In this document: piece by piece, positions 7,970 through 46,122 of the stretch
Layout: every line of letters begins with the position of its first letter
Position numbering within the stretch: the first letter of the stretch is position 1
Assembly (NCBI GenBank): GCA_018816985.1
Contig: JAHIVA010000003.1
Location: 1-49,859 of the forward strand
From: Patescibacteria group bacterium
GTDB lineage: Bacteria > Patescibacteriota > Minisyncoccia > Phycocordibacterales > UBA9973
Direction of reading: 5' to 3'
Length of the DNA: 49,859 nt
Notes under the pieces: generated by a model
The model's database searches: none
What the model was told of the DNA's origin: nothing
The model's input: only the letters and a program-made list of their open reading frames with translations
Position numbers and translations under genes: made by a program

Positions 7970-9550
7970 ATGAAAATTCCCAAAAAAATCTCTAGCGCTT
8001 TAATTTCAGTTTTTAATAAAGATGGGCTAGAAGAAATTGTTAAACTTCTCGCTAGATACAAAGTAAAAATTATTTCTACTGGTGGTACGGCGGAGTTCAT
8101 TCGCAAATTAAAAATTCCAGTAACTGAAGTAGAAGCAATTACTAATTTTCCAGCAATTTTCGGGAGCAGAGTAAAGACACTACAGCCACAAATTTTTGGT
8201 GGGATTTTGAATCGTCGAGACAACAAAAAAGACCAAAAAGAAAAAGAAGAACACAAGATAGCCGATATTGATTTAGTTATCGTGGATCTTTATCCGTTTG
8301 AAGAAACTCTCGAGAAATATGGAAACGAACCCTCCTTCGCCAAGACTTCGAAAGGCGAGGCAGAAATTATTGAAAAAATAGATATTGGTGGAATAGCACT
8401 TATTCGAGCAGCCGCGAAAAATTTTAACGATGTGGTAGTTATTCCTTCTAAATACCAATATCAAGAATTAATTAAAATACTAAAAAAGAGTGCAAAAACT
8501 ACTTTGGAACAACGTAAAAAATTCGCTGGTCAAGCGTTTGAAGTAACTAGCATTTACGATACTGCTATTCGTGGATATTTTCAGGGTGTGTCAAAGGCGG
8601 GCTTTGACACGAGTATTAAACTTCGCTACGGGGAAAATCCGCACCAAGGAGGAAAATTTGTCGGCAACTTGTCCGAAATATTTTCTCAACTTAATGGCAA
8701 AGAACTTTCTTATAACAACCTTCTTGATACTGAAGCTGCTATCACAACCATTAGTGATTTTAAAGATCCCGCTTTCGCTATTATTAAACACCTGAATGCC
8801 TGCGGTTTAGCTGTTCGCAAAGAAGGAAAACTTTTAGATGCATATAAAGCCGCCTATAAAGCTGACCCACTTTCTGCCTTTGGTGGAGTGTTTGCTACTA
8901 ATAGAATCATTAAAGAAAATATTGCTAAATATATAAAAAAACAAAAGATTTTTTTAGAAGTAATTATTGCTCCAGATTTTACAAAAAAGGCTCTAGAAAT
9001 ATTAAAGGAGAAAAAAGATTGTCGAATTTTAAAGTGCTTGCCCGCCGAAGCCTTGGCGAAGGCGGGGCAAAATCCAATTCTACCTACCAAGCAAATTCGC
9101 ACTTGTTTTACGGGACTACTTGTTCAGGACAGAGATACTCACGTGGAAAATGAAAAAGATTTAAAAATTGTTACAAAAAGAAAACCTACCAAACAGGAAG
9201 AAAAAGATTTACTGATGGCCGCTATCGCCACTAAACATTTAAAATCTAATTCTGTGGCTCTGGTAAAAAACGGCACGCTTGTTTCTATGGGTTGTGGACA
9301 GACATCTCGCATTGATGCCCTAAAGCAGGCAATTGATAAAGCTAAAAAATTTGGATTTTCACTTAAAGGTGCCGTGCTTTCTTCGGAAGCTTTTTTTCCA
9401 TTTCCTGATTCTGTGGAGATGGCAGGGAAGGCAGGAGTAAGCGCCGTTATTCAACCCGGAGGTTCCAAGAACGACCAAGCTTCCATCGACATGGCTAATA
9501 AATACAAAATGGCTATGGTTACAACTGGTTTTCGGCATTTTAAGCATTAA
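7970..9550 (+). CDS. purH: AICAR transformylase / IMP cyclohydrolase
   Basis: ALISV, STGGT, IDIGG, AAAKN, RYGENPHQ, QPGGS, RHFKH. Confidence 0.98.
   Translation: MKIPKKISSALISVFNKDGLEEIVKLLARYKVKIISTGGTAEFIRKLKIPVTEVEAITNFPAIFGSRVKTLQPQIFGGILNRRDNKKDQKEKEEHKIADIDLVIVDLYPFEETLEKYGNEPSFAKTSKGEAEIIEKIDIGGIALIRAAAKNFNDVVVIPSKYQYQELIKILKKSAKTTLEQRKKFAGQAFEVTSIYDTAIRGYFQGVSKAGFDTSIKLRYGENPHQGGKFVGNLSEIFSQLNGKELSYNNLLDTEAAITTISDFKDPAFAIIKHLNACGLAVRKEGKLLDAYKAAYKADPLSAFGGVFATNRIIKENIAKYIKKQKIFLEVIIAPDFTKKALEILKEKKDCRILKCLPAEALAKAGQNPILPTKQIRTCFTGLLVQDRDTHVENEKDLKIVTKRKPTKQEEKDLLMAAIATKHLKSNSVALVKNGTLVSMGCGQTSRIDALKQAIDKAKKFGFSLKGAVLSSEAFFPFPDSVEMAGKAGVSAVIQPGGSKNDQASIDMANKYKMAMVTTGFRHFKH
8330..8359 (-). 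repeat. 30-nt hairpin element (family B) in-frame in purH, degenerate copy
   Basis: CCCTCCTTCGCCAAGACTTCGAAAGGCGAG = PSFAKTSKGE; 24/30 identical to the reverse complement of 9037-9066. Confidence 0.8.
9037..9066 (+). repeat. 30-nt hairpin element (family B) in-frame in purH
   Basis: CTTG-CCCGCC-GAAGCCTTGGCGAA-GGCGGG, a GC-rich island encoding LPAEALAKAG. Confidence 0.85.
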
Positions 9551-9597
9551 AATTATATTTTTGTTTTATATTAAAAAAATGATAAGATAAAATTACT

Positions 9598-10116
9598 ATG
9601 AAAAATCTAGAAGTTGGCATAATTATGGGCTCAGATTCTGATTTAGAGGTAATGGCGGAAGCAGCCAAGGTCCTTGAAGAATTTAAGGTACCCTATGAAA
9701 TAACGGTTGCTTCGGCGCATCGCAGTCCTGACTTGGTTCATAAATATGCAACTATTGCTAAAGATTGCGGATTAAAAATTATTATTGCTGGTGCTGGAGG
9801 CGCAGCACATTTAGCAGGGGTAATTGCTTCATTAACAACCCTACCAGTTATCGGTGTACCTATTAAAACAAAAAATCTAGATGGTCTTGATTCCATTCTT
9901 TCAACGGTCAACATGCCTTCCGGTATACCGGTGGCCACTGTCGGAATTAACTCTGCTAAAAATGCTGGATTGTTGGCCATAGCCATGCTCGCAATATCTG
10001 ATAAAAATTTAGAAAAAAAATTAGTTGCTTATAAAAATAAAATGAATAAGGAAATAAAAATAAAAAGCAAAAAACTTTTAAAAATTGGATATAAAAAATA
10101 TTTGCAAAATAAATGA
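9598..10116 (+). CDS. purE: N5-CAIR mutase (class I PurE)
   Basis: IMGSDSD, SAHR, AGGAAHL, PVIGVP, MPSGIPVATV. Confidence 0.97.
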   Translation: MKNLEVGIIMGSDSDLEVMAEAAKVLEEFKVPYEITVASAHRSPDLVHKYATIAKDCGLKIIIAGAGGAAHLAGVIASLTTLPVIGVPIKTKNLDGLDSILSTVNMPSGIPVATVGINSAKNAGLLAIAMLAISDKNLEKKLVAYKNKMNKEIKIKSKKLLKIGYKKYLQNK

Positions 10117-11153
10117 CTGACTTATATAAACAAGCTGGGGTAAATATTGAAGCTGGAAATGAAGTCGTCAAGCGAATTAAGGAAGACGTCATGAGCACCC
10201 ATACCAAAGCGGTGCTAACCAACATTGGACATTTCGGAGGATTGTATGACCTAGGAGAGATAATAAAAAATTATAAACACCCAATCTTAGTTCAAAGTAT
10301 TGACGGCGTGGGAACAAAGCTTTTGGTGGCCAAAATGGTAAATAAATACGACTCTGTGGGGGAAGACATGGTTGGACATAGTTGTGGAGATATTTTAGCC
10401 ATGGGTGCACGGCCAATTATTTTTTTAGATTATGTCGCTAACGAAACACTCGTACCCGAAGAAATGGAACAAATAGTTTCTGGAATGGTAAGGTCTTGTA
10501 AAAAAGCCGGTGTCGCAATTATCGGTGGCGAAACCGCGGAAATGCCTGGGGTATATATGAAAGGAGAACATGATATCGCCGGATGTATCACCGGCATAGT
10601 AGAGAAAGATAAAATAATCACCGGAGAAAAAATTAAGGAAGGTGATATTATTCTAGGTCTTGCTTCTTCTGGATTGCACACTAATGGATTCTCCCTGGCA
10701 AGAAAATTAATTTTCGAAACAGCTAAACTTTCAATAAGAGATAAAATTCCTGAACTCAACACGACTATCGGCCAAGCACTTTTACAAATTCATCTAAATT
10801 ATACCGAGCCTATATTGGCTATTCTTGATTCGGGCATTGAAATAAAAGGCATCGCCCATATAACTGGCGGGGGCTTTATAGAGAATATTCCACGAGTACT
10901 TCCAAAAAACCTTAACGCAGAAATTAAAAAAGATTCCTGGCCAGTACTTCCTATTTTTTCTTTTTTACAGAAAATCGGCCAGGTAAACGAAGAGGAAATG
11001 TATACAGCTTTCAATATGGGCATAGGAATGGTTCTAATAGCTTCGTCAGCAGAAAAAGAAAAAATTAAAATAATCTTGGAAAAATATTCAGATTATCATT
11101 TATATGAAATCGGTCAAATTATTAAAGGAGAAGGTAAAGTAAAATTAGTTTAA
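10113..11153 (+). CDS. purM: AIR synthase
   Basis: YKQAGV, DGVGTK, GGETAEMP, SSGLHTNGFSL, HITGGG, FNMGIG. Confidence 0.98.
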   Translation: MTDLYKQAGVNIEAGNEVVKRIKEDVMSTHTKAVLTNIGHFGGLYDLGEIIKNYKHPILVQSIDGVGTKLLVAKMVNKYDSVGEDMVGHSCGDILAMGARPIIFLDYVANETLVPEEMEQIVSGMVRSCKKAGVAIIGGETAEMPGVYMKGEHDIAGCITGIVEKDKIITGEKIKEGDIILGLASSGLHTNGFSLARKLIFETAKLSIRDKIPELNTTIGQALLQIHLNYTEPILAILDSGIEIKGIAHITGGGFIENIPRVLPKNLNAEIKKDSWPVLPIFSFLQKIGQVNEEEMYTAFNMGIGMVLIASSAEKEKIKIILEKYSDYHLYEIGQIIKGEGKVKLV

Positions 11154-11163
11154 TTTAAAAAAA

Positions 11164-12096
11164 ATGAATATTTTAGAAAAAACAGATTTCAAAAATTTAG
11201 GAAAAAAATATATTGGTAAAGTAAGAGATGTTTATATTCAAAACGACAAGGTAATTTTAATTTCCACTGACCGATATTCAGCTTTTGACCGCAATCTTGC
11301 CTTAATCCCTTACAAAGGACAAGTTCTGACACAAATTAGTCGTTTTTGGTTTGAAAATACAAAAGATATTGTAAAAAATCACGTTCTTGATTTTCCAGAT
11401 TCAAATGTAGTGGTGGGTAAAAAATGTAAAGTTATCCCTATAGAAATGGTGGTGCGAGGATATATTACTGGAGTCACTGATACTTCTTTATGGACTTTAT
11501 ATAATAATGGACAAAGAAATTTTGGTGATTTTATTTTACCAGATGGTATGAAAAAAAATCAAAAACTAGCTAAACCAGTTTTAACACCCACGACCAAAGC
11601 TTCGGACCACGACCAACCGTTAACGACTGCTGATATTGTAAACGAAAAAATTGTTTCAAAAGAATTATGGGAAAAAATGATGGACGTAACATTAAAACTC
11701 TTTCAAAGAGGGCAAGAAGTCGCTTTTCAGCATGGATTAATTTTAGTAGATACTAAATATGAATTTGGCTTAGATGAGAGCGGAGAACTAACTCTCGTTG
11801 ACGAAATTCATACTCCCGATTCCTCTCGTTATTGGCAAGCAAAAACTTACGAGGAACGCATTAAAGGTGGCCTAGAACCAGAAAATTTCGATAAAGAATT
11901 TCTACGTTTATGGTTTAAAGAACAATGTGATCCATATAAAGATGTTATAATACCACCGGCTCCTCCGGAATTAGTATCAGAGCTATCTCGCCGATATATG
12001 CAGATTTTTGAACAAATTACTGGCACTAGTTTTAAAATTGAAACAGGAAATATTGAAAAAAGAATAGAAAATAATCTTAAAAAATATATAATATAA
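11164..12096 (+). CDS. purC: SAICAR synthetase (long type)
   Basis: GKVRDVY, DRYSAFD, VDTKYEFG, DEIHTPDSSRYW, DKEFLR. Confidence 0.97.
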   Translation: MNILEKTDFKNLGKKYIGKVRDVYIQNDKVILISTDRYSAFDRNLALIPYKGQVLTQISRFWFENTKDIVKNHVLDFPDSNVVVGKKCKVIPIEMVVRGYITGVTDTSLWTLYNNGQRNFGDFILPDGMKKNQKLAKPVLTPTTKASDHDQPLTTADIVNEKIVSKELWEKMMDVTLKLFQRGQEVAFQHGLILVDTKYEFGLDESGELTLVDEIHTPDSSRYWQAKTYEERIKGGLEPENFDKEFLRLWFKEQCDPYKDVIIPPAPPELVSELSRRYMQIFEQITGTSFKIETGNIEKRIENNLKKYII

Positions 12097-12098
12097 TT

Positions 12099-13460: not shown

Positions 13461-13463
13461 AAT
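13435..13463 (+). promoter_or_regulatory. Sigma70-type promoter, leaderless geometry
   Basis: TTGCGT-17 nt-TAGAAT, then 6 nt to ATG 13470. Confidence 0.55.
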
Positions 13464-13469
13464 AGGTCT

Positions 13470-13736
13470 ATGTTGTTTAGAATTTTAGCTTCTCTTTTAC
13501 TCTTATTTTCAATACTTTTTATGCCTTTTTGGGTGTCTGTCATTTTAGCTTTAGCTGGAATGATTTATTTTAATGTTTTTTTCGAAGCAATAATTTTATT
13601 TATTTTATCGGATTTGCTTTATGGAACAAAAGAGTCAAGTTTTCCTGTAGTTTTTACTTCTTTTATCGTCACTTCAATTGTTTTAATAATGATAGAAATA
13701 ATGAAAAAAAAAGTAAAATTTTATAATGATCGTTAA
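13470..13736 (+). CDS. Small membrane protein
   Basis: 88 aa, almost entirely hydrophobic; overlaps the PBP start. Confidence 0.75.
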   Translation: MLFRILASLLLLFSILFMPFWVSVILALAGMIYFNVFFEAIILFILSDLLYGTKESSFPVVFTSFIVTSIVLIMIEIMKKKVKFYNDR

Positions 13737-15420
13737 AATATTTAAAAAAAATAAAAAGAAAAAAAATACCTTGGTAGAACCAGACGAGATTTTTCTAGAT
13801 TCAAAAAATCTAGAAAGTTTTGATCGCCAGCAATTTGAGGGACGGATAGAGCGTCCTATCCCTAAAAAAAATATTCTCTTGCTTGGTATTTTATTTTTAT
13901 TTTTTACAGTAATTTTTGGAACTCGGCTTGTTTATCTTCAAATCCAAAAAGGGGAAACATATTTTAAACGTAGCCAAAATAATATACTAGAAAAAGTTCC
14001 TATTTTTACCGATCGGGGAATGGTCTACGATCGTAATAAGGTAGAATTAACCTGGAATGAAAAAACAAGCGAATCTTCCATTCCTATTCGAAATTATTTG
14101 TCACCAGGATTCTCACATCTTTTAGGTTATGTGAGTTATCCCACAATGGATAATTCTGGCAATTATTGGCAGGTCGAATTTATAGGCAAAGATGGATTAG
14201 AAAAACAATACAATGATTCACTAAAGGGTGAAAATGGAGCAAAAATAATAGAAACAGATGCATTGGGAAAAGTATATTCGGAAAATATTATCAATGCACC
14301 CAAAAAAGGTACCGACTTAATAACGACGATTGATTCAAGAATTCAAAAAGAATTGTTCAATCTCATAAAAAATCTCTCAGCCAATAGAACTTTTAACGGA
14401 GGTTCGGGGATTATAATGAGTACAGAGAATGGAGAGATTATAGCTACCACCAGTTTTCCCGAATATAATTCAGAAATTCTTTCATTAGGAAAAGACGTGG
14501 TAATAATTAATGGTTATTTAACTGACCCAAGAAAAGTTTTTTTAGATAGAGATATCTCTGGACTTTATACTCCAGGATCAATCGTCAAACCCTTTTTTGC
14601 TTTAGGGGCTCTAGTAGAAGGAGTAATTGATCCGTATAAAAAAATTCTTTCTACCGGCTCTATTTCTATCCCTAATCCTTATTTTCCAAATCAAAAAACT
14701 GTTTTTAAAGATTGGCAAGTAAATGGCTGGACAAATATGATGGAAGCATTAGCTGTTTCTTCGGATGTTTATTTTTATGAAATTGGTGGGGGATTTGAAG
14801 ATCAAAAAGGGTTAGGTATAACTAATCTTGGAAAATATGCGGAACTTTTCGGTTTTGGAGAAAAAACAGGAATAGATTTGCCAGACGAAAAAGCTGGGAC
14901 CATTCCCAGTCCGAATTGGAAAATATTAAATTTCAAAGGAGACCCTTGGCGCATTGGAGACACCTATCATACTGCCATCGGACAATATGGATTCCAAGTA
15001 ACCCCAATAGAGATGGTTCGTGCAGTAGCCGCTATTGGAAACAGTGGAATAATGCTCACTCCACATTTAGTGTTAGGTGATTTGGAAAAGGAAAATCAAA
15101 AAACTCTACTTAACTTAAACAAAGAATATTTTAATACTGTACATGAAGGAATGAAACTTGCGGTAACTTCCGGGACCGTGACAGCTCTAAATGTACCCTA
15201 TGTACAAGTAGCTGCTAAATCGGGTACTGCCCAGATTGGAGTAGCTAAAAATAAAGTTAATTCTTGGGTTATTGGTTTCTTTCCTTACAAAAATCCAAAA
15301 TACGCCTTTGCAATAATAATGGAAGCTGGACCCGCAACCACAGGCGGTGGCGCCGCTTCCACTATTATGCGTCAGCTCTTAGACTGGATGTCCGTCAACA
15401 CACCAGAGTATTTTAAGTAA
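13726..15420 (+). CDS. mrdA: Class B penicillin-binding protein (PBP2-like)
   Basis: N-terminal TM, RGMVYDRN, GKDGLEK, PGSIVK (SxxK), SSD, KSGT. Confidence 0.88.
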   Translation: MIVKIFKKNKKKKNTLVEPDEIFLDSKNLESFDRQQFEGRIERPIPKKNILLLGILFLFFTVIFGTRLVYLQIQKGETYFKRSQNNILEKVPIFTDRGMVYDRNKVELTWNEKTSESSIPIRNYLSPGFSHLLGYVSYPTMDNSGNYWQVEFIGKDGLEKQYNDSLKGENGAKIIETDALGKVYSENIINAPKKGTDLITTIDSRIQKELFNLIKNLSANRTFNGGSGIIMSTENGEIIATTSFPEYNSEILSLGKDVVIINGYLTDPRKVFLDRDISGLYTPGSIVKPFFALGALVEGVIDPYKKILSTGSISIPNPYFPNQKTVFKDWQVNGWTNMMEALAVSSDVYFYEIGGGFEDQKGLGITNLGKYAELFGFGEKTGIDLPDEKAGTIPSPNWKILNFKGDPWRIGDTYHTAIGQYGFQVTPIEMVRAVAAIGNSGIMLTPHLVLGDLEKENQKTLLNLNKEYFNTVHEGMKLAVTSGTVTALNVPYVQVAAKSGTAQIGVAKNKVNSWVIGFFPYKNPKYAFAIIMEAGPATTGGGAASTIMRQLLDWMSVNTPEYFK

Positions 15421-15503
15421 ATAACAAATAGAAGTATTACTAAACGCACGACAAAAACTTGTTCATCTTTACAAATAAGTTTTTATTGTTCATAATATAG
15501 CTA

Positions 15504-16448
15504 ATGTTTACTTGGTTAAAAAAACATTTTATTCCACACGAAGGAAATGAGCATCGTCCACATATTTTACGTGGTTATAATATTCGTAATCTTATTATTA
15601 TTGTTATTTTTTTAGAAATAATAACTTTTCTCTTACCGACACTAACTCATCTAAATACAGCAGGGAACATGGCAGCAGTTTTGCCAGCTGTCTTGTCTAA
15701 TCTAACAAACGAAAAGCGACAATCTCAAGATCTTCAAACTTTAACAGTTAATCCAATTTTAAATAAAGCAGCCGAAATGAAAGCAGAAGATATGTCCGCC
15801 AAAGGATACTTTGCCCACACCAGCCCTGAAGGAAAAACTCCTTGGTATTGGCTTGAGCAAGTAGGTTATCAATACCAATATGCTGGTGAAAATCTAGCTA
15901 TTAACTTTAGCGATTCCAAAGATGTCGCTACTGCTTGGATGTCTAGTTCTTCCCATAAATCAAATATTATAAAAGAAAACTATACAGAAATCGGTACCGG
16001 TATTGCTACTGGTATATATGAAGGATATGAGACAATTTTCGTAACTCAAATTTACGCAAATCCTCTAAAAGAAACAATAGGACAAATAGAATCCACCTCA
16101 AAAGAAATAAAAACAAATAATGAGGAACTGATAAATGTTCTTGGGGCAGAAACAGTTATAACTACAGAAAATACTCAAGATATTTTAATTAGCCCAGCTG
16201 AAAATGCTTCATTTTGGCAAAAACTAATTGCCTCACCCCGCAATACTACTAATATATTTCTATATATTATTTTCGGAATTATTGTCCTTGCCTTGTTTTT
16301 ATATGTAATATTTATAAAAATGAAAAATCATCATCTTGGATTAATAACAAATGGATTAGTTGTTTTAGCTATTATTGGAGTGATTTTTATTACCAATTAC
16401 TATTTAAGTCATCACAATATGGTAATTACCCAAAGTTTGGATTTTTAA
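15504..16448 (+). CDS. CAP/SCP-domain membrane protein
   Basis: YFAHTSPEG, AGENLA, WMSSSSHKSNI, EIGTG; terminal TM segments. Confidence 0.88.
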   Translation: MFTWLKKHFIPHEGNEHRPHILRGYNIRNLIIIVIFLEIITFLLPTLTHLNTAGNMAAVLPAVLSNLTNEKRQSQDLQTLTVNPILNKAAEMKAEDMSAKGYFAHTSPEGKTPWYWLEQVGYQYQYAGENLAINFSDSKDVATAWMSSSSHKSNIIKENYTEIGTGIATGIYEGYETIFVTQIYANPLKETIGQIESTSKEIKTNNEELINVLGAETVITTENTQDILISPAENASFWQKLIASPRNTTNIFLYIIFGIIVLALFLYVIFIKMKNHHLGLITNGLVVLAIIGVIFITNYYLSHHNMVITQSLDF

Positions 16449-16512
16449 AATAAATTTTAATATCGATAGAAAGCTATTTGCATTTTTTTTGTTTATAAAA
16501 TACAATACATTT

Positions 16513-28764: not shown

Positions 28765-30198
28765 TTATTCATATTCCTCAATAAATTTATACAAAAGCCT
28801 AACTGGTGTACCAAGGGCACCGATAGCAAGATTTTCACCAGTCATAGAGGTCATTCTAGGAGCAATATCTAAATGCGCCCATTTTGGAATTCTACCATCT
28901 TTGGATTGGTCTTTGATAAATTGGTAGAGAAAAATTGCTCCATAAATCGCCCCGCCAGAACGAGAATCTTTGTTGTGAATATTAGTAAAATCTCCAAAAG
29001 TTCCCTTTATTTCATTTTCATATTCTTCCCACATAGGCAAACGCCAAACATAATCCCCAGTTTTTTCTCCTTTTTCTTCAAGGTCTTTAGCTAATTTATC
29101 GTCATTAGAAAACAAAACAGAGGCTCTCTCCCCAAGCGCCACCATTGCTGCACCCGTTAGGGTTGCAATATTTATTACAACTTTTGGATTATATTTCCCT
29201 GCATAAGTTAAAGCATCTGCCAAAATCACTCGGCCTTCCGCATCGGTGTTTAATATTTCAATTGTTTGTCCAGACATAGAACGAATCACATCTCCCGGAT
29301 GATAACTTTTTCCAGAAGCCATATTCTCCACAGCTGGAATGAGCCCAATTACATTCTTTTTTAATTTCATTTTAGCTATTAAGACAATCGCATGAATTAC
29401 CGCTGAGCCCCCAGACATATCCATATTCATGCCAGAAAGAGAGGACGAGGGTTTTAAATTTATTCCACCCGTATCAAAAGTTACTCCTTTCCCTACAAGC
29501 ACAATCGGTTTATCTGTTTTTTTGCCTCCTTCGTATTCCATAATAATAAATTTTGATTCTTCATCTGACCCTCGTCCAACAGAAAGGATAGCTCGCATAT
29601 TTTCTTTTTCCATCTCCTTTTCGCCAAGCACCGTAACTTTTACTGGTAAATTTTTTACTGCTTCTTTTGCTTTCTTCGATAAAATTTGCGGAGTCATATC
29701 TCCGCCAGGCATATTTGAGAGAGAACGAGTTTTATTTACCTCCTCAGCAATAATACTTCCTTTCAAAATAGCTTTTTGTATTTCTTTATTTACTCCTAAA
29801 ATAAAAATTTCCTGAATTAAGGAAAAGCCTTCCTTTGGTGGAGTTTTATATTCATTAAATTCATAATTGGCAAAATCAAGCTGAGAGCCGATAATTTCTC
29901 CAAGCTCTAGGTTAGATAGTTTTATGCTGCTGAATTTGAAATCATTAAAATTGAAAGCAAGCTTTTTTGTTTTGGTGCTTTTAGCCATAACAACCATTTT
30001 GCGCACTAATAAAAATAGCTTTCTTAAATTTATTTTTCCTTCCTCGTCGCATTTCAAATAAAGAGTTTTTACTCCATTTTCTTTTACAATTTCATCACTT
30101 ACTTGTGGTGAGCTTGTCGAACCATTTTTTGAGCCAATAGACACAAAAAGCACCTCCCCCGGCACTCCTTTTGCGCTATCTTTAAAGGTAATTTTCAT
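28765..30198 (-). CDS. pepA: M17 leucyl aminopeptidase
   Basis: VGKGVTFDTGG, DMSG, NTDAEGR, ATLTGA, HLDIA. Confidence 0.95.
   Translation of the reverse strand: MKITFKDSAKGVPGEVLFVSIGSKNGSTSSPQVSDEIVKENGVKTLYLKCDEEGKINLRKLFLLVRKMVVMAKSTKTKKLAFNFNDFKFSSIKLSNLELGEIIGSQLDFANYEFNEYKTPPKEGFSLIQEIFILGVNKEIQKAILKGSIIAEEVNKTRSLSNMPGGDMTPQILSKKAKEAVKNLPVKVTVLGEKEMEKENMRAILSVGRGSDEESKFIIMEYEGGKKTDKPIVLVGKGVTFDTGGINLKPSSSLSGMNMDMSGGSAVIHAIVLIAKMKLKKNVIGLIPAVENMASGKSYHPGDVIRSMSGQTIEILNTDAEGRVILADALTYAGKYNPKVVINIATLTGAAMVALGERASVLFSNDDKLAKDLEEKGEKTGDYVWRLPMWEEYENEIKGTFGDFTNIHNKDSRSGGAIYGAIFLYQFIKDQSKDGRIPKWAHLDIAPRMTSMTGENLAIGALGTPVRLLYKFIEEYE
30101..30124 (+). repeat. Hairpin element (family C) in-frame in pepA
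   Basis: A-CTTG-TGGT-GAGCTTGTCGA-ACCA; encodes GSTSSPQV on the minus strand. Confidence 0.7.
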
Positions 30199-31485: not shown

Positions 31486-32826
31486 TTATTCTGACAGTCT
31501 GCTATCTATACGCGTCATGTCTCTCGGAAATGAAGTAGCTTCTTTAACATTTGGAAGTTCAAGCATTCTAGCAGTGAAACGCTCCAGTCCGGTAGATGAC
31601 CCCCCGTGAGGAGGCATACCATATTTGAAAGCCTGAAGATAATATGAAAATTTGTTAGGATCCATTCCCCTCTCTTTTATTTTAGCCACAAGCATATCGT
31701 AATTATGAATTCGTTGCGCCCCGCTATTTATCTCTAATCCCCGAAAAAGCAAATCAAAACCCCTAGAATAGGGTGCTTCTTTTGGGTCTTCATATGTATA
31801 AAAGGCTCGCTTTTTTGTTGGATATCTTGTAATAAATACGAAATCTGAACCCTTTTCTTTTTTGGCCCATTCACAAATATTACGTTCATGTTCGGGATCC
31901 ATATCTGGAGCATGTTCAACACCAAGAATATCGTGTACTTCTTTCAGTGTTAGAATAGGAATTTCATTAGGTAGAAGCGGTAAGGTTGTATTAAAATGAG
32001 AAAATATGTCAGAGTGTTTTTCTTTCACTATCTGAACGACATCGCGAATAACTTGCTCTAAGACTGCCATAGGTTCTCGCTCATTTTCAATAAACCCCAT
32101 TTCAAAATCAATACAGGTTGCTTCGCTTAAATGACGAGTGGTAGCGCTTTTCTCAGCTCTAAAAATTTTTGCCACCGTGAAAGCGCGTTCAAACGGACCA
32201 ACCATAATTTGCTTATAAAATTGTGGACTAGTCGCCAAAAACGCCGTATGGTCATTAAAATAATCTACTTTAAATGCGGCTGCTCCCCCTTCCGCATCTC
32301 CTCCCACAAGCGCTGGGGCAATAAATTCTGTAAAACCTTGTTGCTGTAAAGAATTTCTATAAGCGTCAAGAATTGATGCCTGCATTTTAAAAATATCTTT
32401 GGCTCGTTCTGTTCGTAACTTGAATGGTAAATAATCCAAATATGTATCAAGATTAACTTCGGTATCAAGGTCAAATGGCAAATCTTGAGCTTCAGACAAA
32501 ACTTCGATACCTGTCACCTCTAACTCCACTCCCCCATTCAATACTCCCACTTTTATATTTTTCTCTGGACGATTGTTTACTAAACCAGTAATTTTTAAAA
32601 CCCATTCTGAGCGAATTTCTTTTGCCTTTTCAATAACTTCTGCTCGAGAGGGTAAAGCTACGCATTGCACTTTCCCAGTCACATCTCTCATATCAAAAAA
32701 AACCATCTTCCCCTGGTCACGTCTGACATCTACCCATCCAGCAATAATAATTTCTTTTTGACCTGAGCTCGTCGAATGGTTGCCTATATTATCTTTTAAA
32801 TCTTTTATATAAATTCTATTTTGCAT
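31486..32826 (-). CDS. aspS: Aspartate-tRNA ligase, short non-discriminating type
   Basis: GWV, AEGG, SPQFYKQ, FRAE, SGAQR, GMPPHGG, GLER; lacks the GAD insert. Confidence 0.93.
   Translation of the reverse strand: MQNRIYIKDLKDNIGNHSTSSGQKEIIIAGWVDVRRDQGKMVFFDMRDVTGKVQCVALPSRAEVIEKAKEIRSEWVLKITGLVNNRPEKNIKVGVLNGGVELEVTGIEVLSEAQDLPFDLDTEVNLDTYLDYLPFKLRTERAKDIFKMQASILDAYRNSLQQQGFTEFIAPALVGGDAEGGAAAFKVDYFNDHTAFLATSPQFYKQIMVGPFERAFTVAKIFRAEKSATTRHLSEATCIDFEMGFIENEREPMAVLEQVIRDVVQIVKEKHSDIFSHFNTTLPLLPNEIPILTLKEVHDILGVEHAPDMDPEHERNICEWAKKEKGSDFVFITRYPTKKRAFYTYEDPKEAPYSRGFDLLFRGLEINSGAQRIHNYDMLVAKIKERGMDPNKFSYYLQAFKYGMPPHGGSSTGLERFTARMLELPNVKEATSFPRDMTRIDSRLSE
32757..32780 (+). repeat. 24-nt hairpin element (family C) in-frame in aspS
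   Basis: TTTG-ACC-TGAGCTCGTCGAAT-GGT; encodes (N)HSTSSGQ; shares TGAGCTyGTCGAA with the pepA copy. Confidence 0.75.
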
Positions 32827-37288: not shown

Positions 37289-37326
37289 ACACAGGAGTTT
37301 CCTATGTACATAGGAAACTCCTGTGT
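37289..37326. repeat. Perfect 38-bp palindrome (doublet of 19-nt REP-like hairpins, family D)
   Basis: ACACAGGAGTTTCCTATGT|ACATAGGAAACTCCTGTGT. Confidence 0.95.
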
Positions 37327-37338
37327 TATACTTAATGT

Positions 37339-37974
37339 ATGGCATTAAGAAAACAAGTTTTCGCTCCAGGTGAATTTTATCATTTATATAATCGCGGTAC
37401 TGAAAAAAGAATAATCTTTTTAGATGAATATGACTATCGTCACTTTTTGTTTTTAATGTATATTTGCAACTCAGAAAAAAGCATCACATTAAGAAATGTT
37501 GGTGAATTTTTTGACCGAGGAGAAACTATCGTTGATATTGGAATCTTTTGTTTAATGCCAAATCATTTTCATATTCTTGCTTATGAAAAAATAGAAAATG
37601 GCATTTCTACATACATGCGTAAATTATTGACTGGATACTCCATGTATTTCAATAAAAAATACAAAAGAACCGGAAAATTGTATGAAGGGGTTTTTAAATC
37701 AATTCACGCAAACAAAGACACATATTTTAAATATCTTTATTCATACGTACATCTAAATCCGGCAAAAATAATAGATAAAAATTGGAGAGAAAACAACAAC
37801 AGAAATTCAGCAAGCTTATTAAAATATGTTTTTTCTTACCCATACTCAAGTCTAAAAGAATATAAAGATAAAAAATTTAGAATCGTAAACCCCTTGCCGT
37901 TTCCTGCTTATTTCAAAAATCTAATTGATCACAAAAAAGAACTTTTGGAGTGGCTTAGTTTTGATGATGCATAG
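37339..37974 (+). mobile_element. REP-associated tyrosine (Y1 HUH) transposase, RAYT-like
   Basis: FYHLYNRG, CLMPNHFHI, GKLYEGVF, YVHLNP, YSS; flanked by palindromes. Confidence 0.9.
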
Positions 37975-38005
37975 GAAACTCCTATGTACATAGGAGTTTC
38001 CTATG
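37970..38005. repeat. Perfect 36-bp palindrome (family D doublet) containing the transposase stop codon
   Basis: CATAGGAAACTCCTATGT|ACATAGGAGTTTCCTATG. Confidence 0.95.
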
Positions 38006-38015
38006 TTAAGTACAA

Positions 38016-38623: not shown

Positions 38624-38680
38624 AAGTTACATATTATATGAAATTTCACAAAAAGGCAAGGATGGGTTATACTAAATATT

Positions 38681-39688: not shown

Positions 39689-39697
39689 AAAATTAAA

Positions 39698-41077: not shown

Positions 41078-41655
41078 ATTTGCTTAAAAATCTTTTTGCG
41101 GTAGATGCAAAATACAATTACTAGATTAATCAATACGAAATATAAACCAAAAGAATAAATAGAGAAAGTCCAATTCTTAATAATCAATAAACCAAAAGCA
41201 TTACTCAAGGCAGCCACTAAATATACAGTGACTGCTTCTGTTTCTGGAAATTTCCAAGATTTTACAAGTGTCGGCATAGTCGCTAGGCCATCACTTAATA
41301 TGGCAAACAAAATAGATATTCCTAAATTATGAGTAAATATATAGAGAATTAAGGCCATTAAGGCAAGCGCTCCGCAATATAGATCGAATGCATTAAATTT
41401 CCAAAAACCATTTTTAGTTAAAATAGCTGTAATAATAATTAATAAAGAAAGAAAGCCATCCATAAATATCGGAAGACTGACAAGTCCTGCCCCAGCCTTA
41501 AGCTGAAAGAACACTCCGATAAGTGGAGCCAGCGCCCAAATAAACCAAGAAACCAAATTAGGTTTCGCCTCTCCTTTTATTATGCTTTTAATATAAGAAA
41601 GATGGCCAAATAAACTTAAAAAAATAACAATGTAAATAATATTTTCAGGAAGCAT
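41074..41655 (-). CDS. Six-TM hypothetical membrane protein
   Basis: Hydrophobic throughout; two loosely similar halves (KPNLVSW / PTLVKSWKFPETE). Confidence 0.75.
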   Translation of the reverse strand: MLPENIIYIVIFLSLFGHLSYIKSIIKGEAKPNLVSWFIWALAPLIGVFFQLKAGAGLVSLPIFMDGFLSLLIIITAILTKNGFWKFNAFDLYCGALALMALILYIFTHNLGISILFAILSDGLATMPTLVKSWKFPETEAVTVYLVAALSNAFGLLIIKNWTFSIYSFGLYFVLINLVIVFCIYRKKIFKQI

Positions 41656-41659
41656 TTTT

Positions 41660-42769
41660 TTATATTCCCTCTTTTTTAAGTTGTTCTATGATCTCGCGGG
41701 ATTGACGAGATAATTTCCCTGGAAGTTTGATGTTGAGTTTAATCAATAAATCACCGCGTCTGTTTTTCCCAACAGGTACGCCTTTGCCTCGCACTCGCAG
41801 AATTTCATTGATAGTTACTCCCTCCGGAATAGTTACTTCAATTTCCCCGTCTAGAGTCTGAATTGGATATTTGGTTCCCAATAAGGCATCAGAAAGTTTC
41901 AAATTCAAATTCATCACCAAGTCACTACCTTCGCGCTTGAAAACCGGATGCGATGCCACGTTTATTTTTATATAAAGATCCCCAGCTGTTCCTTTAGAAA
42001 TAGCTTCACCATAACCAGTCATCTGAATCATCTCCCCATCACGAATGCCCGCCGGAATAACAATTGAAACTTCTTCCTCGCGACGGAGCACGCCTTTGCC
42101 TTTGCATTTTTCACAAATTTCTTTTGGTACCTCACCTGTTCCTAAACAAAATTCACAAGTTTTAGTACTGGCAATATTTCCAAAAATTGTTCTTTTGGAC
42201 TCACGAATCCTACCCTGACCGTTGCAATGCTTACAAGTCTCCATCTTGGAGCCAGCCCTAGCACCAGAACCGCTACAAATTAAACATTTTGAAGTTTTAG
42301 TAATTAAAACTTTTCGAGTAGTGCCAAAAACAGAATCAGCAAAAGAAATTTGAATCTCAGTAGAAATATCTCTTCCACGGCGTGCCTCTCGCCTTCCCCC
42401 ACCCATTCCGCCACCAAAAAAATCACTAAAAATATCATTGAGATTCCCAAAGTCTCCACTAAAAGCAGATTCACCTTGAGCGGAAAAATTAGAAAAGTCG
42501 AACCCCTCAAATCCTCTAAATCCACTTTGCGCGCCTCCTCCATATCCCGCCCCTGCATTTTCAAATTGAGAACCAAATTGATCATACTTTGAACGCCTAG
42601 TATCATCCGAGAGGACCTGATAAGCTTCATTAGCTTGTTTGAATTTTTCTTCATTACCACCTTTTTTATCAGGATGATATTTTTGCGCCAACTTATAAAA
42701 AGCCTTTTTGATTTCATCCTTAGAGGCACCCCTATTAACACCTAAAATATTGTAATAGTCTTTGTTCAT
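41660..42769 (-). CDS. dnaJ: Chaperone DnaJ
   Basis: J domain with HPD, G/F-rich region, four CxxCxGxG repeats. Confidence 0.98.
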
Positions 42770-42784
42770 AACGATATTTAACTA

Positions 42785-44272
42785 TTATATCATAGGTTCA
42801 GCCTCTTGGGAAGTTTGATTTTTTTCTTTCTCTTTTCCCTCAGGTGTAGCACTACGAGCGAGCCTCTTTGCCCTACCCTCAATAATTGCTTTCTCTTCTT
42901 CACTTCGAATAATTGTGGCCTCTTCTTCAGCAATAAGTTTAGCTGCATCACCCTTAGGTATTGAATATTTACCACGAGAAGCCTCAATAATTTCTTCTCT
43001 GTATGATGGATGAGTTGGCACAAGAACTCGTAATGTTTCAGCGGAAAACGGATCATATGATTCTCCATCAATGGTCATTTTTATATAAAATTCCCCGACA
43101 GCTAGATTAATCATATCTTTAACATCAAACAAGGGCGCAAATTCCGGTTTCATTTTCACTGCATCTTCACCACCAATCCGAAAAGTGATAACGCTCCCAC
43201 AATTACCCAACACCGCCTGATGAACTCTCGGTAAAATTTGGCCGACATATTGATGAGCAATGGTCAGATTAAGAGCATATTTTCTAGCTTCCGATAAAAT
43301 ATTTTCAAAGGTCTGAGTAACGACATTTTGGAACTCATCCACATATAAATAAAAATCCACCCGATCTTTTTCCGGAATAGCAGCTCGTTCCATTCCGGCT
43401 TGTTTTATTTTGGTTAAAAATATCGAACCAAGAAATGAAGAATTTTCTTCTCCCAAACGTCCTTTAGAAAGATTAATCAGAATTATTTTTTGTTGATTCA
43501 TTAACTCACTGATATCTATTTTATTCTGTTTCTGCCCGAAAATATTTCGGAGCAATGGGTCGGAAAGAAATTGCCCCAGTTTGTTCACTAACGGAATAAT
43601 GGCATCAGTATCAAACTTCTCAGACCAATCAGCGAATTCTATTGCAAAGAATCTTTTCACCATATCGTCGGTAATATACTCCACCACTTTTTGTCTATAA
43701 TTTCTATCCGTTAACATTGAAATCATTCCACGCATTGTAGCATGAGGATAGTCAAGCAGAGCCAAACAAGTAAAACGAAAAACGTGTTCTAATCGAGGTG
43801 TCCAATTCGCTCCAAATTGTTTTTGGAAAACCTCAATTAACCCTTGGGTTAATTGAAATTTAAACATCGGATCAACATTGGCTAGTGGATTAAAGGAGGC
43901 CGGAAAGTCTAAGTCAGTCGGATCAATGAGACAAACATCATTAATCCGTTCCTTAGGTATATAATCAAGAATCGCATTTATTTCATCTCCGTGTGGATCT
44001 ATTAAGCAAATCCCGTGGCCATAAGTAATATCTTGGCGCATAAAAAGCTCAAGTAATTTGCTTTTCCCGACACCGGATTTACCGACAATATAAAGATGGC
44101 GACGACGGTCTAGTCTTTTGATACCAAAAACAAATTTTTTCTCTTCTAAAGAAGCAACGTAATTCGTTCGGCCAATGAAAGAAACATCTTCTGGTTTGAC
44201 CTTTCCAAAAACAGGCAATTCCGGCGGTGGCGGTCCGTATTTTATTATTTGCACTCGATTCTGTTTAATCAT
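42785..44272 (-). CDS. TraG/VirB4/HerA-FtsK-type ATPase
   Basis: GKSGVGKS, IDPHG, FNPL, LYVDEFQN, EARKY, HQ. Confidence 0.88.
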   Translation of the reverse strand: MIKQNRVQIIKYGPPPPELPVFGKVKPEDVSFIGRTNYVASLEEKKFVFGIKRLDRRRHLYIVGKSGVGKSKLLELFMRQDITYGHGICLIDPHGDEINAILDYIPKERINDVCLIDPTDLDFPASFNPLANVDPMFKFQLTQGLIEVFQKQFGANWTPRLEHVFRFTCLALLDYPHATMRGMISMLTDRNYRQKVVEYITDDMVKRFFAIEFADWSEKFDTDAIIPLVNKLGQFLSDPLLRNIFGQKQNKIDISELMNQQKIILINLSKGRLGEENSSFLGSIFLTKIKQAGMERAAIPEKDRVDFYLYVDEFQNVVTQTFENILSEARKYALNLTIAHQYVGQILPRVHQAVLGNCGSVITFRIGGEDAVKMKPEFAPLFDVKDMINLAVGEFYIKMTIDGESYDPFSAETLRVLVPTHPSYREEIIEASRGKYSIPKGDAAKLIAEEEATIIRSEEEKAIIEGRAKRLARSATPEGKEKEKNQTSQEAEPMI

Positions 44273-44296
44273 ATATTAATTATTTTAGCACAAAAT

Positions 44297-46075
44297 TTAA
44301 TAAACCTCCTTTTGGTAGCATTTCTCGCAATAAATTATCTCCGGTCGGTCGGGAGAGTAGGTAGTTTCAAACTCATTTGGACAAGGTTCATTTCTATGAA
44401 AATGTTCTATTGTATTTTTATATTTTTTATTTGAAGAATAGGCCCCAGCACACTGACATTTACCAGACCAGAGCTTGAACGGATTTCTTTGTTTTAACCT
44501 CTGATAGTGCCGACAATTAGGACAAAAACGTGGTAAAGCAATATTGTTATTTTTAAGAAATTCTAACTCTGACTTAATAATTCTATAGGCTTTCGTACAC
44601 TGAGTTTTTTCATTACCATTATTGGGACAAGCAATAATTTCTTCTAAAATACTTTCCGGCACATCTTTAATATGATCTGACAAATCTTTACTCAAGATAG
44701 TTGTTTGATAATCTTTTTCCAGTGAGTCTCGAAAATTATTCTTGTTTTTAATAATTTCTTTTTTTGTTTTTGGAAAATATTCTTGAGCAATTGTTTCATT
44801 ATAGGCAAAGGGAGATAATTCACTTGGAAAAAATTCTCCATATTTATAAATTAAACCCTTTTTATCTTTATAGGGTAAATTATTCATTTGCTCAATAATT
44901 TTCGGCACAAGCTTTTCATATTCTTCTTTGCTATATTGTTTATTTAAAATACAATACTGTTTACCTCGTAAGCCAACACAACCAAAAAGATTTTTAGAAC
45001 TAAAACACATATATGTGTAATGGGTATTTAAACAACTATGGGTAAAAATAGAAAATAATTGCCTAGATGATTGCACCCCTGCATCTACCGATTCATACAT
45101 TAAAGAAGCTATCCCCCCACCATACATATCATAACTATCTTTTAAGTCCACACAATGAATTATATCTTTTGAATCTTCTACTCCACCATAACTATCAAAA
45201 CATCGTTGGACATTTTTAGAATTCATAATATTATCACCTGTCGCTTCAGTAGATTTTATGATACTGGCATATCTATTGGGAAAATTAGGTGCAAATTTAT
45301 TATATAAATTTACAAATTCGCAAAGTTTTTTATAACTACCAAAATCAAATTCTTTTTTCTTTTTTTCATATTCTTCTTTAGTATATTGAATATTAAAAAT
45401 GCAATGACTTTTATTTCTTAAATTGACACAACCAATACAATCTTGTAGATTTTTACAATGTTTTAGAAAAAAGGAGTCAATAGATTCATCTGTATCGTAA
45501 GAAAAATGAGTTTTATATAAACCTACACACAACGTATCCCAATAAGACAATTCGGATTTATCAACAACATATATATCAAGACAATCCTTTAATCCAACAG
45601 CACCAAATGAATAATGTGTTCGTTCGTTATTATAAGAGGCATATAATAAATAACAATATTTACAATCCAAATTATGATTACCAAAAGGGCTACCTACACA
45701 ATTGACGTTTCCTAAATTAGCTAATGGAGTTTTGTGAAGCAACTCCTGAAACTGCTTAAAAAAGGGCTGAGAAAAATCATAATCCATTTTATAATCAGTT
45801 GGCTCCCATTGGTCGCTCCACCAAATATCATGATCATAGATTATCACATCCGTATCTGGATGAAACATTGTTATTATTTCCTTGCCAGTTTTGGCGCAAG
45901 GTCTTTTAAAAAGTGAACGTTCGTTACGCCAAGTCATCCGGCGAATTAACCGACATTCCGGACAAAAAGTCGGCAAAGGAACTTTGATTTTTTCATAAAA
46001 ATTAAAATCTTCCGGCTCTATGGAAAACGAAGCCTTGCAATTTTGACACACCACATTTTTAGATTTATATTCCAT
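44297..46075 (-). CDS. Cys-rich protein with terminal zinc ribbons
   Basis: CQNC..CPEC at the N-terminus, CPNC..CEKC at the C-terminus, periodic Cys in the middle. Confidence 0.8.
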   Translation of the reverse strand: MEYKSKNVVCQNCKASFSIEPEDFNFYEKIKVPLPTFCPECRLIRRMTWRNERSLFKRPCAKTGKEIITMFHPDTDVIIYDHDIWWSDQWEPTDYKMDYDFSQPFFKQFQELLHKTPLANLGNVNCVGSPFGNHNLDCKYCYLLYASYNNERTHYSFGAVGLKDCLDIYVVDKSELSYWDTLCVGLYKTHFSYDTDESIDSFFLKHCKNLQDCIGCVNLRNKSHCIFNIQYTKEEYEKKKKEFDFGSYKKLCEFVNLYNKFAPNFPNRYASIIKSTEATGDNIMNSKNVQRCFDSYGGVEDSKDIIHCVDLKDSYDMYGGGIASLMYESVDAGVQSSRQLFSIFTHSCLNTHYTYMCFSSKNLFGCVGLRGKQYCILNKQYSKEEYEKLVPKIIEQMNNLPYKDKKGLIYKYGEFFPSELSPFAYNETIAQEYFPKTKKEIIKNKNNFRDSLEKDYQTTILSKDLSDHIKDVPESILEEIIACPNNGNEKTQCTKAYRIIKSELEFLKNNNIALPRFCPNCRHYQRLKQRNPFKLWSGKCQCAGAYSSNKKYKNTIEHFHRNEPCPNEFETTYSPDRPEIIYCEKCYQKEVY

Positions 46076-46088
46076 AACTTTTTTGCAG

Positions 46089-46122
46089 CCTGCCCTGTAC
46101 TAAGCTTTGCTTTAGTATGGGG
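46089..46122 (+). repeat. 34-nt hairpin element with CCTG foot
   Basis: CCTG-CCCTGTACTAAGC-TTT-GCTTTAGTATGGGG, interrupting a CQN|C coding stretch on the minus strand. Confidence 0.75.

Follow-up and report, generated by a model that had tools for sequence, protein, structure and literature searches.

Tiny REP-like hairpin elements as a probable source of in-frame peptide insertions in a Patescibacteria genome

How do short hairpin-forming segments come to stand in frame within the genes of housekeeping enzymes? This question is raised by contig C111, a stretch of 49,859 nucleotides (nt), here called the window, from a 1.02-Mb, 136-contig assembly with 37% G+C (genome G000) that is placed in Patescibacteria by the names of its purH orthologs; the sequencing runs that contain the window are groundwater metagenomes. 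An earlier note on this DNA had listed five elements (A to E) of three sequence types, each with a 4-nt foot followed directly by an imperfect hairpin, and all five sequences were found where the note had placed them. The reading that we prefer, with a probability of about 0.6, is that elements A to D are copies of tiny DNA elements that resemble repetitive extragenic palindromes (REPs), insert as whole units, are filtered for reading frame and are recognised as hairpins through their loop and foot.

Window genes were identified from Pfam, and empty sites were sought in the close relatives G006, G013 and G003. The window purH gene (AICARFT/IMPCHase; 7970..9550, plus strand) encodes 526 amino acids (aa) and carries three hairpin inserts, compared with 493-495 aa for most orthologs; its identity was 79% to the G013 gene and 76% to that of G006. 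Element A (9037..9066, plus strand, 30 nt), which encodes (C)LPAEALAKAG, consists of the foot CTTG (9037-9040), the arm CCCGCC, the 15-nt core GAAGCCTTGGCGAAG (9047-9061) and the arm GCGGG, and accounts for 10 aa that are missing from G006 purH. The element splits a TGG codon (TG^G), and its excision rejoins TG and G as Trp; purH without the element reads K-W-Q-N-P, compared with K-W-Y-N-P in G006. At the same TG^G, G013 purH carries a different insert of 13 codons (39 nt) with a CCTG foot and the same outer stem. Among the purH orthologs printed out, all carriers at this site read ILK-C/Y-LP...AG whereas 27 of 29 non-carriers read ILK-W, the others having Y and S. The TTG of the element A foot could form additional pairs with a CAA that stands 3' of the stem. 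Many contigs with unrelated flanks from two groundwater runs matched the window only over 9035/9036-9066/9067, with loose-end counts of 10 and 8 before and 7 and 9 behind the element for X1 and of 4 before and 1 and 4 behind for X2, and a groundwater run's own contig stopped at 9065. Assemblers tend to break contigs at repeats, and the contig break together with the unrelated flanks therefore indicates that the foot belongs to the repeated unit.

Element B (8330..8359, minus strand), a second unit of the same family within purH, corresponds to the purH codons PSFAKTSKGE and comprises the foot CTCG, the arm CCTTTC, the core GAAGTCTTGGCGAAG and the arm GAGGG, with a stem that depends on G-T pairs. 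These 10 aa are missing from G006 purH and from two solved PurH structures, and the element is compatible with a minus-strand unit of 30 nt that makes up 10 whole codons. The third purH insert (8587..8613, minus strand), which the earlier note had overlooked, is 27 nt or 9 codons long, encodes (V)SKAGFDTS and contains a perfect 9-bp hairpin, GTGTCAAAG-GCGGG-CTTTGACAC (8588-8610), preceded by CTCG on the minus strand. It is missing from G013 and G006 and resembles hairpins that flank RAYT-like genes (RAYT, REP-associated tyrosine transposase) on contigs C129, C23 and C64; inserts of the (M/V)SKxxFD type were present at this site in 26 of 120 purH orthologs. A different insert family, which looks like a further hairpin type, was noted at or near the element B site of other purH orthologs (..GVPTSEGVGIP.., ..APTPEGIGVPTESVG..; sites after residues 116 and 130).

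Elements C and D both lie on the plus strand within genes encoded on the minus strand. Element C (~30100..30125, 24 nt in frame, edges uncertain by ~2 nt) adds the peptide GSTSSPQV to an M17 aminopeptidase and is built from the foot CTTG (30102-30105), the stem TGGT/ACCA and the loop GAGCTTGTCGA; the 8 aa are missing from the G006 ortholog (78% identity). Element D (32757..32780, 24 nt in frame) adds NHSTSSGQ to a class II Asn/Asp-type tRNA synthetase and is built from the foot TTTG, the arm ACC, the 14-nt loop TGAGCTCGTCGAAT and the arm GGT, its 8 aa being missing from all three orthologs (identities of 81% for G013, 74% for G003 and 54% for G006). Likewise overlooked before, a 21-nt hairpin in purD (3331..3351, minus strand; GTACAAGG-TCTTG-CCTTGTAC) encodes 7 aa in frame, STRQDLV, that are missing from both orthologs compared. 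Ortholog alignments showed that relatives bear hairpin inserts of their own. Long, perfectly palindromic in-frame inserts were also noted in G006 proteins (the M17 gene and the C15 and C20 genes), for example PKDGLRGAPRRPSL. They consist, in dimeric form, of the flanking hairpin of the G000 RAYT-like gene on C107.

No target duplication was visible at sites A, B, C and D, and the 5' flanks of the inserts differed from site to site (AAGTG, TTCTGC, TTAATA, CACTTA and TTTCTT). Thus, the view taken in the earlier note, of coding copies of about 24 or 30 nt that lack target duplications, agrees with the measured lengths of 30, 30, 24 and 24 nt in frame relative to orthologs and with the absence of duplications at these four sites, and empty sites, which the note had proposed to look for in sister genomes, were found for A, B, C and D. 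The conditions that the note named as refuting (single-copy motifs, orthologs without empty sites, a foot not conserved over many copies) were examined and did not hold for A to D.

The foot-and-hairpin build described earlier holds for A to D, although the elements fall into two families plus element E rather than into three equal types. Elements A and B have a 15-nt core in common, G(A/T)AGCYTTRGCGAAG, and C and D a core of 11-13 nt; the loop is GWAGCYTTRGCGAAG in family A and GAGCYYGTCGA in family C/D. In both families the loop is constant, and the stems vary between copies yet stay complementary. The hairpin units taken together are 21-39 nt long and have stems of 3-12 bp. Genome G000 contains 12 solid and ~8 weaker copies of family A, as detected by nhmmer, and 6 exact-core copies of family C/D, in line with the multi-copy status expected of A to D. 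The searches used exact or degenerate patterns, with nhmmer in addition for family A, so degenerate copies are under-counted. At least 8 of the family A copies lie in long open frames, where just two readings occur, ..LPAEALAKAG.. when the element is in sense and ..PxFAKASxG.. when it is in antisense orientation; other copies are non-coding.

Among 151 genomes of the order, the exact A core was found in 29, with 97 matches compared with 1 match to the reversed-pattern control, and two variable loop positions pair in 95 of the 97 matches (47 C..G and 48 T..A by hand count). The C/D core was found in 52 of the 151 genomes, with 114 matches compared with 15 control matches (hand sums). The sequence CYYG stood at the 5' stem boundary of 15 of 39 family A copies but at only 2 of 39 mirrored 3' control positions; the corresponding counts for family C/D, which allow a tolerance of 2 nt, were 11 of 29 and 3 of 29, and fell to 3 of 29 and 1 of 29 strictly at the automated stem boundary. 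Thus, the foot is directional and widespread, but partial, occurring in ~38% of copies as CYYG and also as CGTG or TGTG; of the conserved CYTG-like foot that had been proposed, the excess over the mirrored control remains and the claim of general conservation does not. When all G+C-rich perfect hairpins were pooled the foot was diluted, CCTG and CTTG being among the top 4-mers but rare.

Signs of mobility were evident from inserts throughout the genome, from nesting and from recurrence at the purH sites. Folding energies of lineage-specific inserts of 4-20 aa were compared with those of control segments from the same gene, for which about 5% of inserts are expected in the lowest 5%. The proportions observed in this class were 19% of 73 and 25% of 40 inserts for G000, 34% of 74 and 15% of 26 for G006, and 6% of 67 and 10% of 10 for G013, and a stricter filter gave 24 of 113, 27 of 100 and 5 of 77 inserts, respectively, so that the excess was seen in G000 and G006 but not in G013. 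At three loci of two other genomes (L162, L155 and L135), an outer core is interrupted between CCTTG and GCGAAG by a complete second unit that has a foot of its own, and the 5' flank CCTTG^ is common only to such nested copies. In a separate observation, four family A copies (L143, L148, L153 and L157) stand on one strand within 7 kb of contig C3 of G070 (44-52 kb), and the similar ..GTCATCC(C/T)G.. segments ahead of them suggest that the repeat in that genome is longer and composite. Copying of stems from the target flank, suggested by GCGGG/CGGGC before the foot at tRNA-Gly and tRNA-Pro, was refuted at purH site A and at site D.

In a survey of 120 purH orthologs of 70-84% identity, the three main insert sites were the three of the window (24, 26 and 23 carriers). 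Carriers were scattered on the tree, even within well-supported small clades, and required a minimum of 15-16 changes per site, these counts being soft since 50 of 117 forks of the FastTree phylogeny were unresolved. At site A the peptide encoded by foot and stem, LPA..AG, was constant across orthologs and the loop varied from 1 to 9 aa, which fits nesting and loss within the apex. In an AlphaFold2 model of PurH, based on the 120-sequence alignment (mean pLDDT, the predicted local confidence score, 83.5), the inserts lay between secondary-structure elements in stretches of low confidence, pLDDT being below 50 for segments 120-125 and 210-213 and averaging 65 for block 361-370; this modelled placement fits tolerated surface loops.

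On the preferred reading, the mobile unit would have a total length of 21-39 nt, consist of a 4-nt foot and the adjoining hairpin, and insert whole, with its foot and without target duplication. In a gene-dense genome of 1 Mb many such insertions would fall in genes, and the survivors would be those with a length that is a multiple of three in tolerant surface loops, where they would be translated as 7-13 extra residues. The loop and foot define the two families, and the stem would need only to pair. We infer that the active form is probably a hairpin formed by single-stranded DNA, which a structure-specific nuclease would cut and rejoin. Units are also found in the apex of other copies, with remodelled loops, and beside the acceptor ends of tRNA and tmRNA genes, and gain and loss recur at the same nucleotide in related lineages. 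The roughly 13 RAYT-like genes of G000 would drive parallel, private hairpins that behave alike, as seen for the purD insert. The description of the elements as a REP-like, frame-filtered source of protein loops, put forward in the earlier note, is supported by the in-frame inserts, the empty sites and the multi-copy families.

Genome G000 contains 14 Y1_Tnp matches, corresponding to roughly 13 RAYT-like genes, and counts of RAYT-like open reading frames were 15 for G000, 4 for G006 and 0 for G013. Most of these genes, of ~220 aa, have HUH and Tyr motifs and a private perfect hairpin both upstream and downstream. The first RAYT-like Y1 (HUH) gene of the window (687..1352, minus strand; Y1_Tnp, 47.9 bits; motifs NHFH and YIHRNP) has the hairpin GTTCAAC..GTTGAAC downstream (665-685), internally (1161-1181) and upstream (1382-1402). 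The second (37339..37974, plus strand) is accompanied by a private hairpin (37293-37322), and a related hairpin stands right after the stop codon (~37975-38001). These findings bear out the statement that the two window RAYTs flank different repeats. The two proteins scored 37.3 and 28.2 bits against NCBIfam NF047646 (RayT), for which the cut-off is 80; both pass Pfam Y1_Tnp and have the motifs NHFH and Y(I/V)HxNP. Private hairpins also have copies away from their RAYT-like genes. The purD insert is identical over 21 nt (0 mismatches) to the hairpins that flank the C67 RAYT-like gene (15707-15943), and in-frame inserts of G006 include the C107 hairpin dimer described above; judged from these sequence matches, private hairpins of the RAYT type do appear to write peptides into proteins in these genomes. 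A GTAG-type tag was seen only in some of the RAYT-private families, such as that of C64.

A copy of the gene's own hairpin within its own coding sequence, in frame, was noted for 6 of the 13 RAYT-like genes of G000 (including window gene 1 and those on C23, C107, C8, C67 and C74), and two RAYT-like genes of G084 (L197 and L200) have the same layout, the internal in-frame copy included; this suggests self-targeting or autoregulation. The contamination estimate for G000 was 8%, and ~22 contigs exceed 45% G+C. These 22 short contigs (45-61% G+C compared with 37% genome-wide), among them C14, C29, C36, C46, C47, C52-C54, C59, C63, C72, C74, C78, C82, C96, C97, C103, C105, C109, C116 and C120, are probably contamination, and the presence of Y1 genes on C74 and C97 means that the count of RAYT-like genes belonging to G000 itself is maybe 1-2 too high.

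Non-coding family A copies of G000 adjoin genes for tRNA-Gly, tRNA-Pro, tRNA-Glu and tmRNA, and in a wider sample 13 of 82 A copies lay within 60 nt of a tRNA gene. With gap classes that were chosen after seeing the data, the side without the foot faced the tRNA in 10 of 10 cases with a core-tRNA gap of 1-6 nt (upstream on the same strand or downstream on the opposite strand), and the foot side faced the tRNA in 7 of 7 cases with a gap of 8-12 nt; one later case, at tRNA-Trp of G125, obeys the short-gap rule. This geometry is strand-symmetric and therefore favours a relation to acceptor-stem ends at the level of DNA over a role as RNA. A copy in the leader of tRNA-Gly(TCC) recurs in G000, G084 and a Colwellbacteria record.

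When neighbours were clustered for 96 A-core loci from other phyla, the only cluster that overlapped the element itself was a small GIY-YIG protein, at 4 of the 96 loci. Besides this protein, the neighbours that recurred were a sigma-54 activator, a class I tRNA synthetase, an ABC ATPase and the 23S-rRNA-intervening-sequence protein (PF05635), genes for the last being noted within a few kb of A copies at 4 of 96 loci (e.g., L278:6408-6950). A small stand-alone GIY-YIG nuclease gene was the only gene repeatedly found beside both A and C/D copies. In G000, 2 of 3 GIY-YIG matches stand 99-131 nt from an exact A core, both beside tmRNA or tRNA-Glu, and one of the genes has a second A copy 24 nt upstream of its ATG. 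The 150 nt upstream of small GIY-YIG domains contain at least 6 of the 97 exact A cores and at least 3 of the 114 C/D cores, compared with ~0.05-0.06 expected per family by our own arithmetic, with 150 of 362 GIY-YIG places covered; inspected by eye, 6 of 21 GIY-YIG upstream regions contained an A- or C/D-like hairpin. The positional association with GIY-YIG genes is statistically clear, but concerns ~5% of hairpins. The open frames are of 79-84 aa from a MYYVY start, with PF01541 scores of 66.2 and 65.1 bits, and the protein matches PDB 1zg2 (UPF0213; E = 3.9e-8), so that in sequence it is a putative minimal UPF0213/Slx1-like domain. A module of tmRNA 3' end, antisense A hairpin, sense A-like hairpin and small GIY-YIG gene was noted in G000 (C23, 13450-14100, with a small GIY-YIG protein encoded at 13725-13931), G065 (C14) and G051 (C11); it spans three families of the order, and its loops in G051 are enlarged by an extra apical hairpin. 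As to another candidate arrangement, the 1.2-kb stretch between inverted A copies of G073 holds membrane-like open reading frames and no nuclease.

The A loop is found well beyond the order. A 17-nt string, CGAAGCTTTAGCGAAGG, occurs in at least 119 stretches of a species-level genome collection, a count that means little since ~70 are expected by chance, but a perfect stem of at least 5 bp directly surrounds the core in 49 of 81 copies inspected, and most of the others re-pair after one mismatch. Hosts include Bradyrhizobium, Mesorhizobium, Sphingorhabdus, Bacteroidota, Nitrospirota, Verrucomicrobiota, Planctomycetota, Bdellovibrionota, Geomonas and many Patescibacteria, and viral contigs of IMG/VR contain 17 A-loop copies, 8 of them with perfect stems. 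Among cultured hosts, variable complementary stems around the A loop were noted in Bradyrhizobium, Mesorhizobium, Geomonas, Aureisphaera and Sphingorhabdus.

Which enzyme acts on families A and C/D is a matter of competing candidates. An Slx1-like GIY-YIG nuclease and an enzyme of neither kind both come into consideration, each being possible and neither probable by itself, and a RAYT-like Y1 enzyme in trans is a doubtful third; a GIY-YIG partner is thus at least as likely as the HUH attribution for both families. We suggest, tentatively, that the conserved-loop hairpins may be gene-less partners of Slx1-like GIY-YIG nucleases and a pan-bacterial, undescribed counterpart of the REP-RAYT system. 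The nuclease gene would then stand beside tRNA or tmRNA genes behind one or two hairpins, and solo hairpins would spread to acceptor-stem ends, to hairpin apices and, in very small genomes, to genes, so adding peptides to proteins.

Several points count against insertion by a dedicated system and against its proposed partners. The edges of element B are ambiguous by a few codons, there being RNNQ and RDNQ alleles among orthologs, and the empty sites did not reveal a common target motif. Recombination between strains could account for the scattered distribution of purH carriers. The contigs compared from groundwater runs showed no purH allele free of inserts, and among three such runs, uncovered stretches excluded, no contig was seen that skipped a 24-30-nt unit; one contig joint that skipped 317 nt, with only 20 letters on one side, was not used. 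Adjacency to GIY-YIG genes concerns ~5% of hairpins, and small GIY-YIG genes are present in 126 of the 151 genomes (27 of 29 A-core genomes and 99 of 122 others by hand count), so co-occurrence is uninformative. A regulatory role is possible for the hairpin that stands 24 nt before a GIY-YIG start codon, hairpins and GIY-YIG genes could each favour tRNA neighbourhoods for separate reasons, and the same loop across phyla together with the conserved tmRNA-GIY-YIG module could mean host function rather than mobility. Bacterial Slx1-like proteins are described, in the available text of PMC1564403, as stand-alone, of unknown role and with no known transposition activity, while eukaryotic Slx1 is described there as a structure-specific nuclease. 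Lastly, neither an A nor a C/D copy directly flanks any of the 14 Y1 matches of G000 or any of 6 RAYT genes in five other genomes, and no Y1 open frame was found in the 96 loci with an A core.

The last two findings bear on the best of the alternatives, the HUH mobilisation proposed in the earlier note, under which the families would be a REP class moved in trans by Y1 (RAYT) enzymes with CYYG in the role of the GTAG of Escherichia coli. The anatomy equals that of REPs, in which, according to the available text of PMC3479197, the 5' tetranucleotide is needed for binding and cleavage by TnpA-REP. Target duplications are absent, the genome has its 14 Y1_Tnp matches with HUH and Tyr motifs, a private RAYT hairpin is inserted in frame in purD, and downstream of the C74 RAYT gene, ~110 nt away and beyond the hairpin of that gene, there is a single family A copy. 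Genome G013 has neither a RAYT-like open frame nor an excess of hairpin inserts. Y1 matches were present in 24 of 29 A-core genomes compared with 67 of 122 others (odds ratio 3.9, p = 0.006 by Fisher test), a modest association, although the related genomes are not independent and the test overstates the association, and 5 of the 29 A-core genomes are Y1-negative. Moreover, each RAYT gene has a hairpin of its own, but one and the same A loop is found in different phyla. Compared with the direct flanking seen for private hairpins, the missing link between either family and a RAYT gene argues against the attribution, which we regard as rather unlikely.

An improbable alternative is that the hairpins are host-functional RNA or DNA modules, involved in tRNA or tmRNA processing, termination, mRNA stability or GIY-YIG control, with the coding copies as tolerated by-products. 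Conservation of a 14-15-nt loop with covarying positions over many phyla would be expected of such modules, as would the frequency of copies near tRNA genes, the geometry kept in all 17 tRNA-adjacent copies, the recurrent tRNA-Gly leader copy and the retention of the tmRNA-hairpin-hairpin-GIY-YIG module in G000, G065 and G051. However, transcription crosses the coding copies in either direction (A in sense, B in antisense), the strand-symmetric tRNA rule suits DNA better than RNA, and nesting together with presence or absence at one nucleotide among close orthologs indicates turnover. In an Rfam cmscan at E ≤ 1 of 10 loci with copies, only tRNA, tmRNA and sub-threshold noise were detected, with nothing at the hairpins.

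Lower still in probability is an origin with no dedicated enzyme, by palindrome formation through template switching or slippage, spread by recombination and favouring of stable GA-capped mini-hairpins. Repeated hits at the same three purH sites with remodelled loops can be so explained, the carriers at site B have the flanking residues Y-G/E-N-E in common, as with recombination of whole segments, and varying stems that stay perfectly complementary are what correction within a hairpin would give. Identical 15-nt and 11-nt loops with a shared foot at unrelated loci, in different genomes and phyla, are unexpected of de novo formation, however, and the inserted unit is identical from site to site, with arms at A and D that were not copied from the flanks. 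A chance origin of hairpin-like strings from codon usage in Ala/Gly/Pro-rich loops, with which element E and a few weak matches are compatible, was refuted for A to D by the reversed-pattern controls (1 compared with 97 matches and 15 compared with 114), by the mirrored-flank foot control far below the real count, by the excess over same-gene folding controls and by the occurrence of the same DNA in both coding orientations and at non-coding sites.

Known systems resemble the elements in part. Mobile short G+C-rich palindromes that can sit in a coding gene occur as GC clusters in the A+T-rich mitochondrial genome of yeast; these are organellar and have different sequences. Homing endonucleases act by a double-strand break and copying of a whole gene, unlike the spread of 30-nt units. 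Like the REPs of Enterobacteria and Pseudomonas, the elements are short imperfect palindromes without target duplication in a genome with Y1 HUH genes flanked by their own hairpins. In contrast with those REPs, which are high-copy and extragenic and have GTAG or CGTC as tetranucleotide, the elements have a CYYG (CGTG/TGTG) foot in ~38% of copies, conserve the loop rather than the stem, are low in copy number (~20 A and 6 C/D in G000) with many copies intragenic, and lack a RAYT gene flanked by either family. As stated in the available text of the respective sources, REPs are short imperfect palindromes with a tetranucleotide 5' of the hairpin foot (PMC3479197), this tetranucleotide is present in more than 90% of copies in most families (PMC3733652), and a single RAYT copy is typical (PMC5581495), compared with 13-14 divergent RAYT-like paralogs here.

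Palindromic repeats in frame in genes for known proteins are described as intragenic REPs in the available part of Di Nocera et al. (2013; PMC3733652), which places such in-frame palindromes, in unrelated proteins, in what are thought to be tolerant linkers or loops. As with these repeats and with Rickettsia palindromic elements (RPEs), the inserts described here are absent from orthologs. The units are of 21-39 nt and 7-13 aa, compared with ~100-150 bp for RPE-1, and they differ further in their tag, in their host, an ultra-small member of the Patescibacteria, and in hitting the same codon recurrently across 120 orthologs. Peel-and-paste transposition by IS200/IS605 elements is similar in its use of a hairpin and a 4-nt foot guide and in seamless excision and insertion without target duplication (available text of PMC3479197), and it serves here as the mechanistic model, but no specific target tetranucleotide was found 5' of the inserts, the foot travels with the unit and the elements are gene-less. 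As for the Slx1-like/UPF0213 GIY-YIG family, small genes of this kind directly follow A or C/D hairpins and have tRNA or tmRNA genes as neighbours; a hairpin partner or mobility is not described for the bacterial family in the available text of PMC1564403.

Among other features of the window, element E (46089..46122, plus strand), an imperfect intergenic hairpin, is located between a VirD4/TraG-like gene and a gene of 592 aa without a known family. It stands upstream of the minus-strand gene at 44297..46075, at a distance of 14 nt from the start codon. No second copy was found in the genome beyond chance matches of 12-13 nt, and its inclusion among the members, as made in the earlier note, is unproven. 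Several paralogous pairs of a VirD4/TraG-like ATPase and a ~590-aa protein without a Pfam family were noted in G000, G013 and G006 (window 42785-48226). The genes of the window comprise guaA, purH, purE, purD, the M17 aminopeptidase, the class II Asn/Asp-type tRNA synthetase, VirD4/TraG-like ATPases, DnaK and the two RAYT-like Y1 genes.

With in-frame REPs and RPEs already in print, as the available part of PMC3733652 indicates, the kind of element is known. The micro-size, the conserved loop with free stems and the CYYG foot look new, as does the combination, in Patescibacteria, of hot spots that recur at the level of codons with the geometry at tRNA ends and the proximity to GIY-YIG genes. 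In full-text literature, six core strings searched on both strands gave no match and peptide strings of the inserts matched only unrelated papers; among the matches listed, nothing relevant was found for Patescibacteria with RAYT, and those for GIY-YIG with palindrome mostly concerned fungal mitochondria. The family A core strings are not in the text of PMC3733652, although the supplementary lists of REP families and intragenic copies of that paper could bear on novelty.

The hairpins of 21-39 nt appear to be a steady source of small in-frame insertions in the housekeeping enzymes of ultra-small Patescibacteria genomes, and purH, which carries three inserts and in which the same three loops have been rewritten repeatedly over 120 orthologs, would offer a concrete mechanism for loop evolution driven by insertions and deletions. 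Such inserts call for caution in alignment, phylogeny and annotation of these lineages, and a widespread, unnamed DNA element may hide in 'hypothetical protein' translations that read ..EALAK.., ..FAKAS.., ..SFSEGG.. or ..PELVEG... Finally, the adjacency of the hairpins and the geometry at tRNA ends provide the stand-alone GIY-YIG family with a directly testable candidate substrate.

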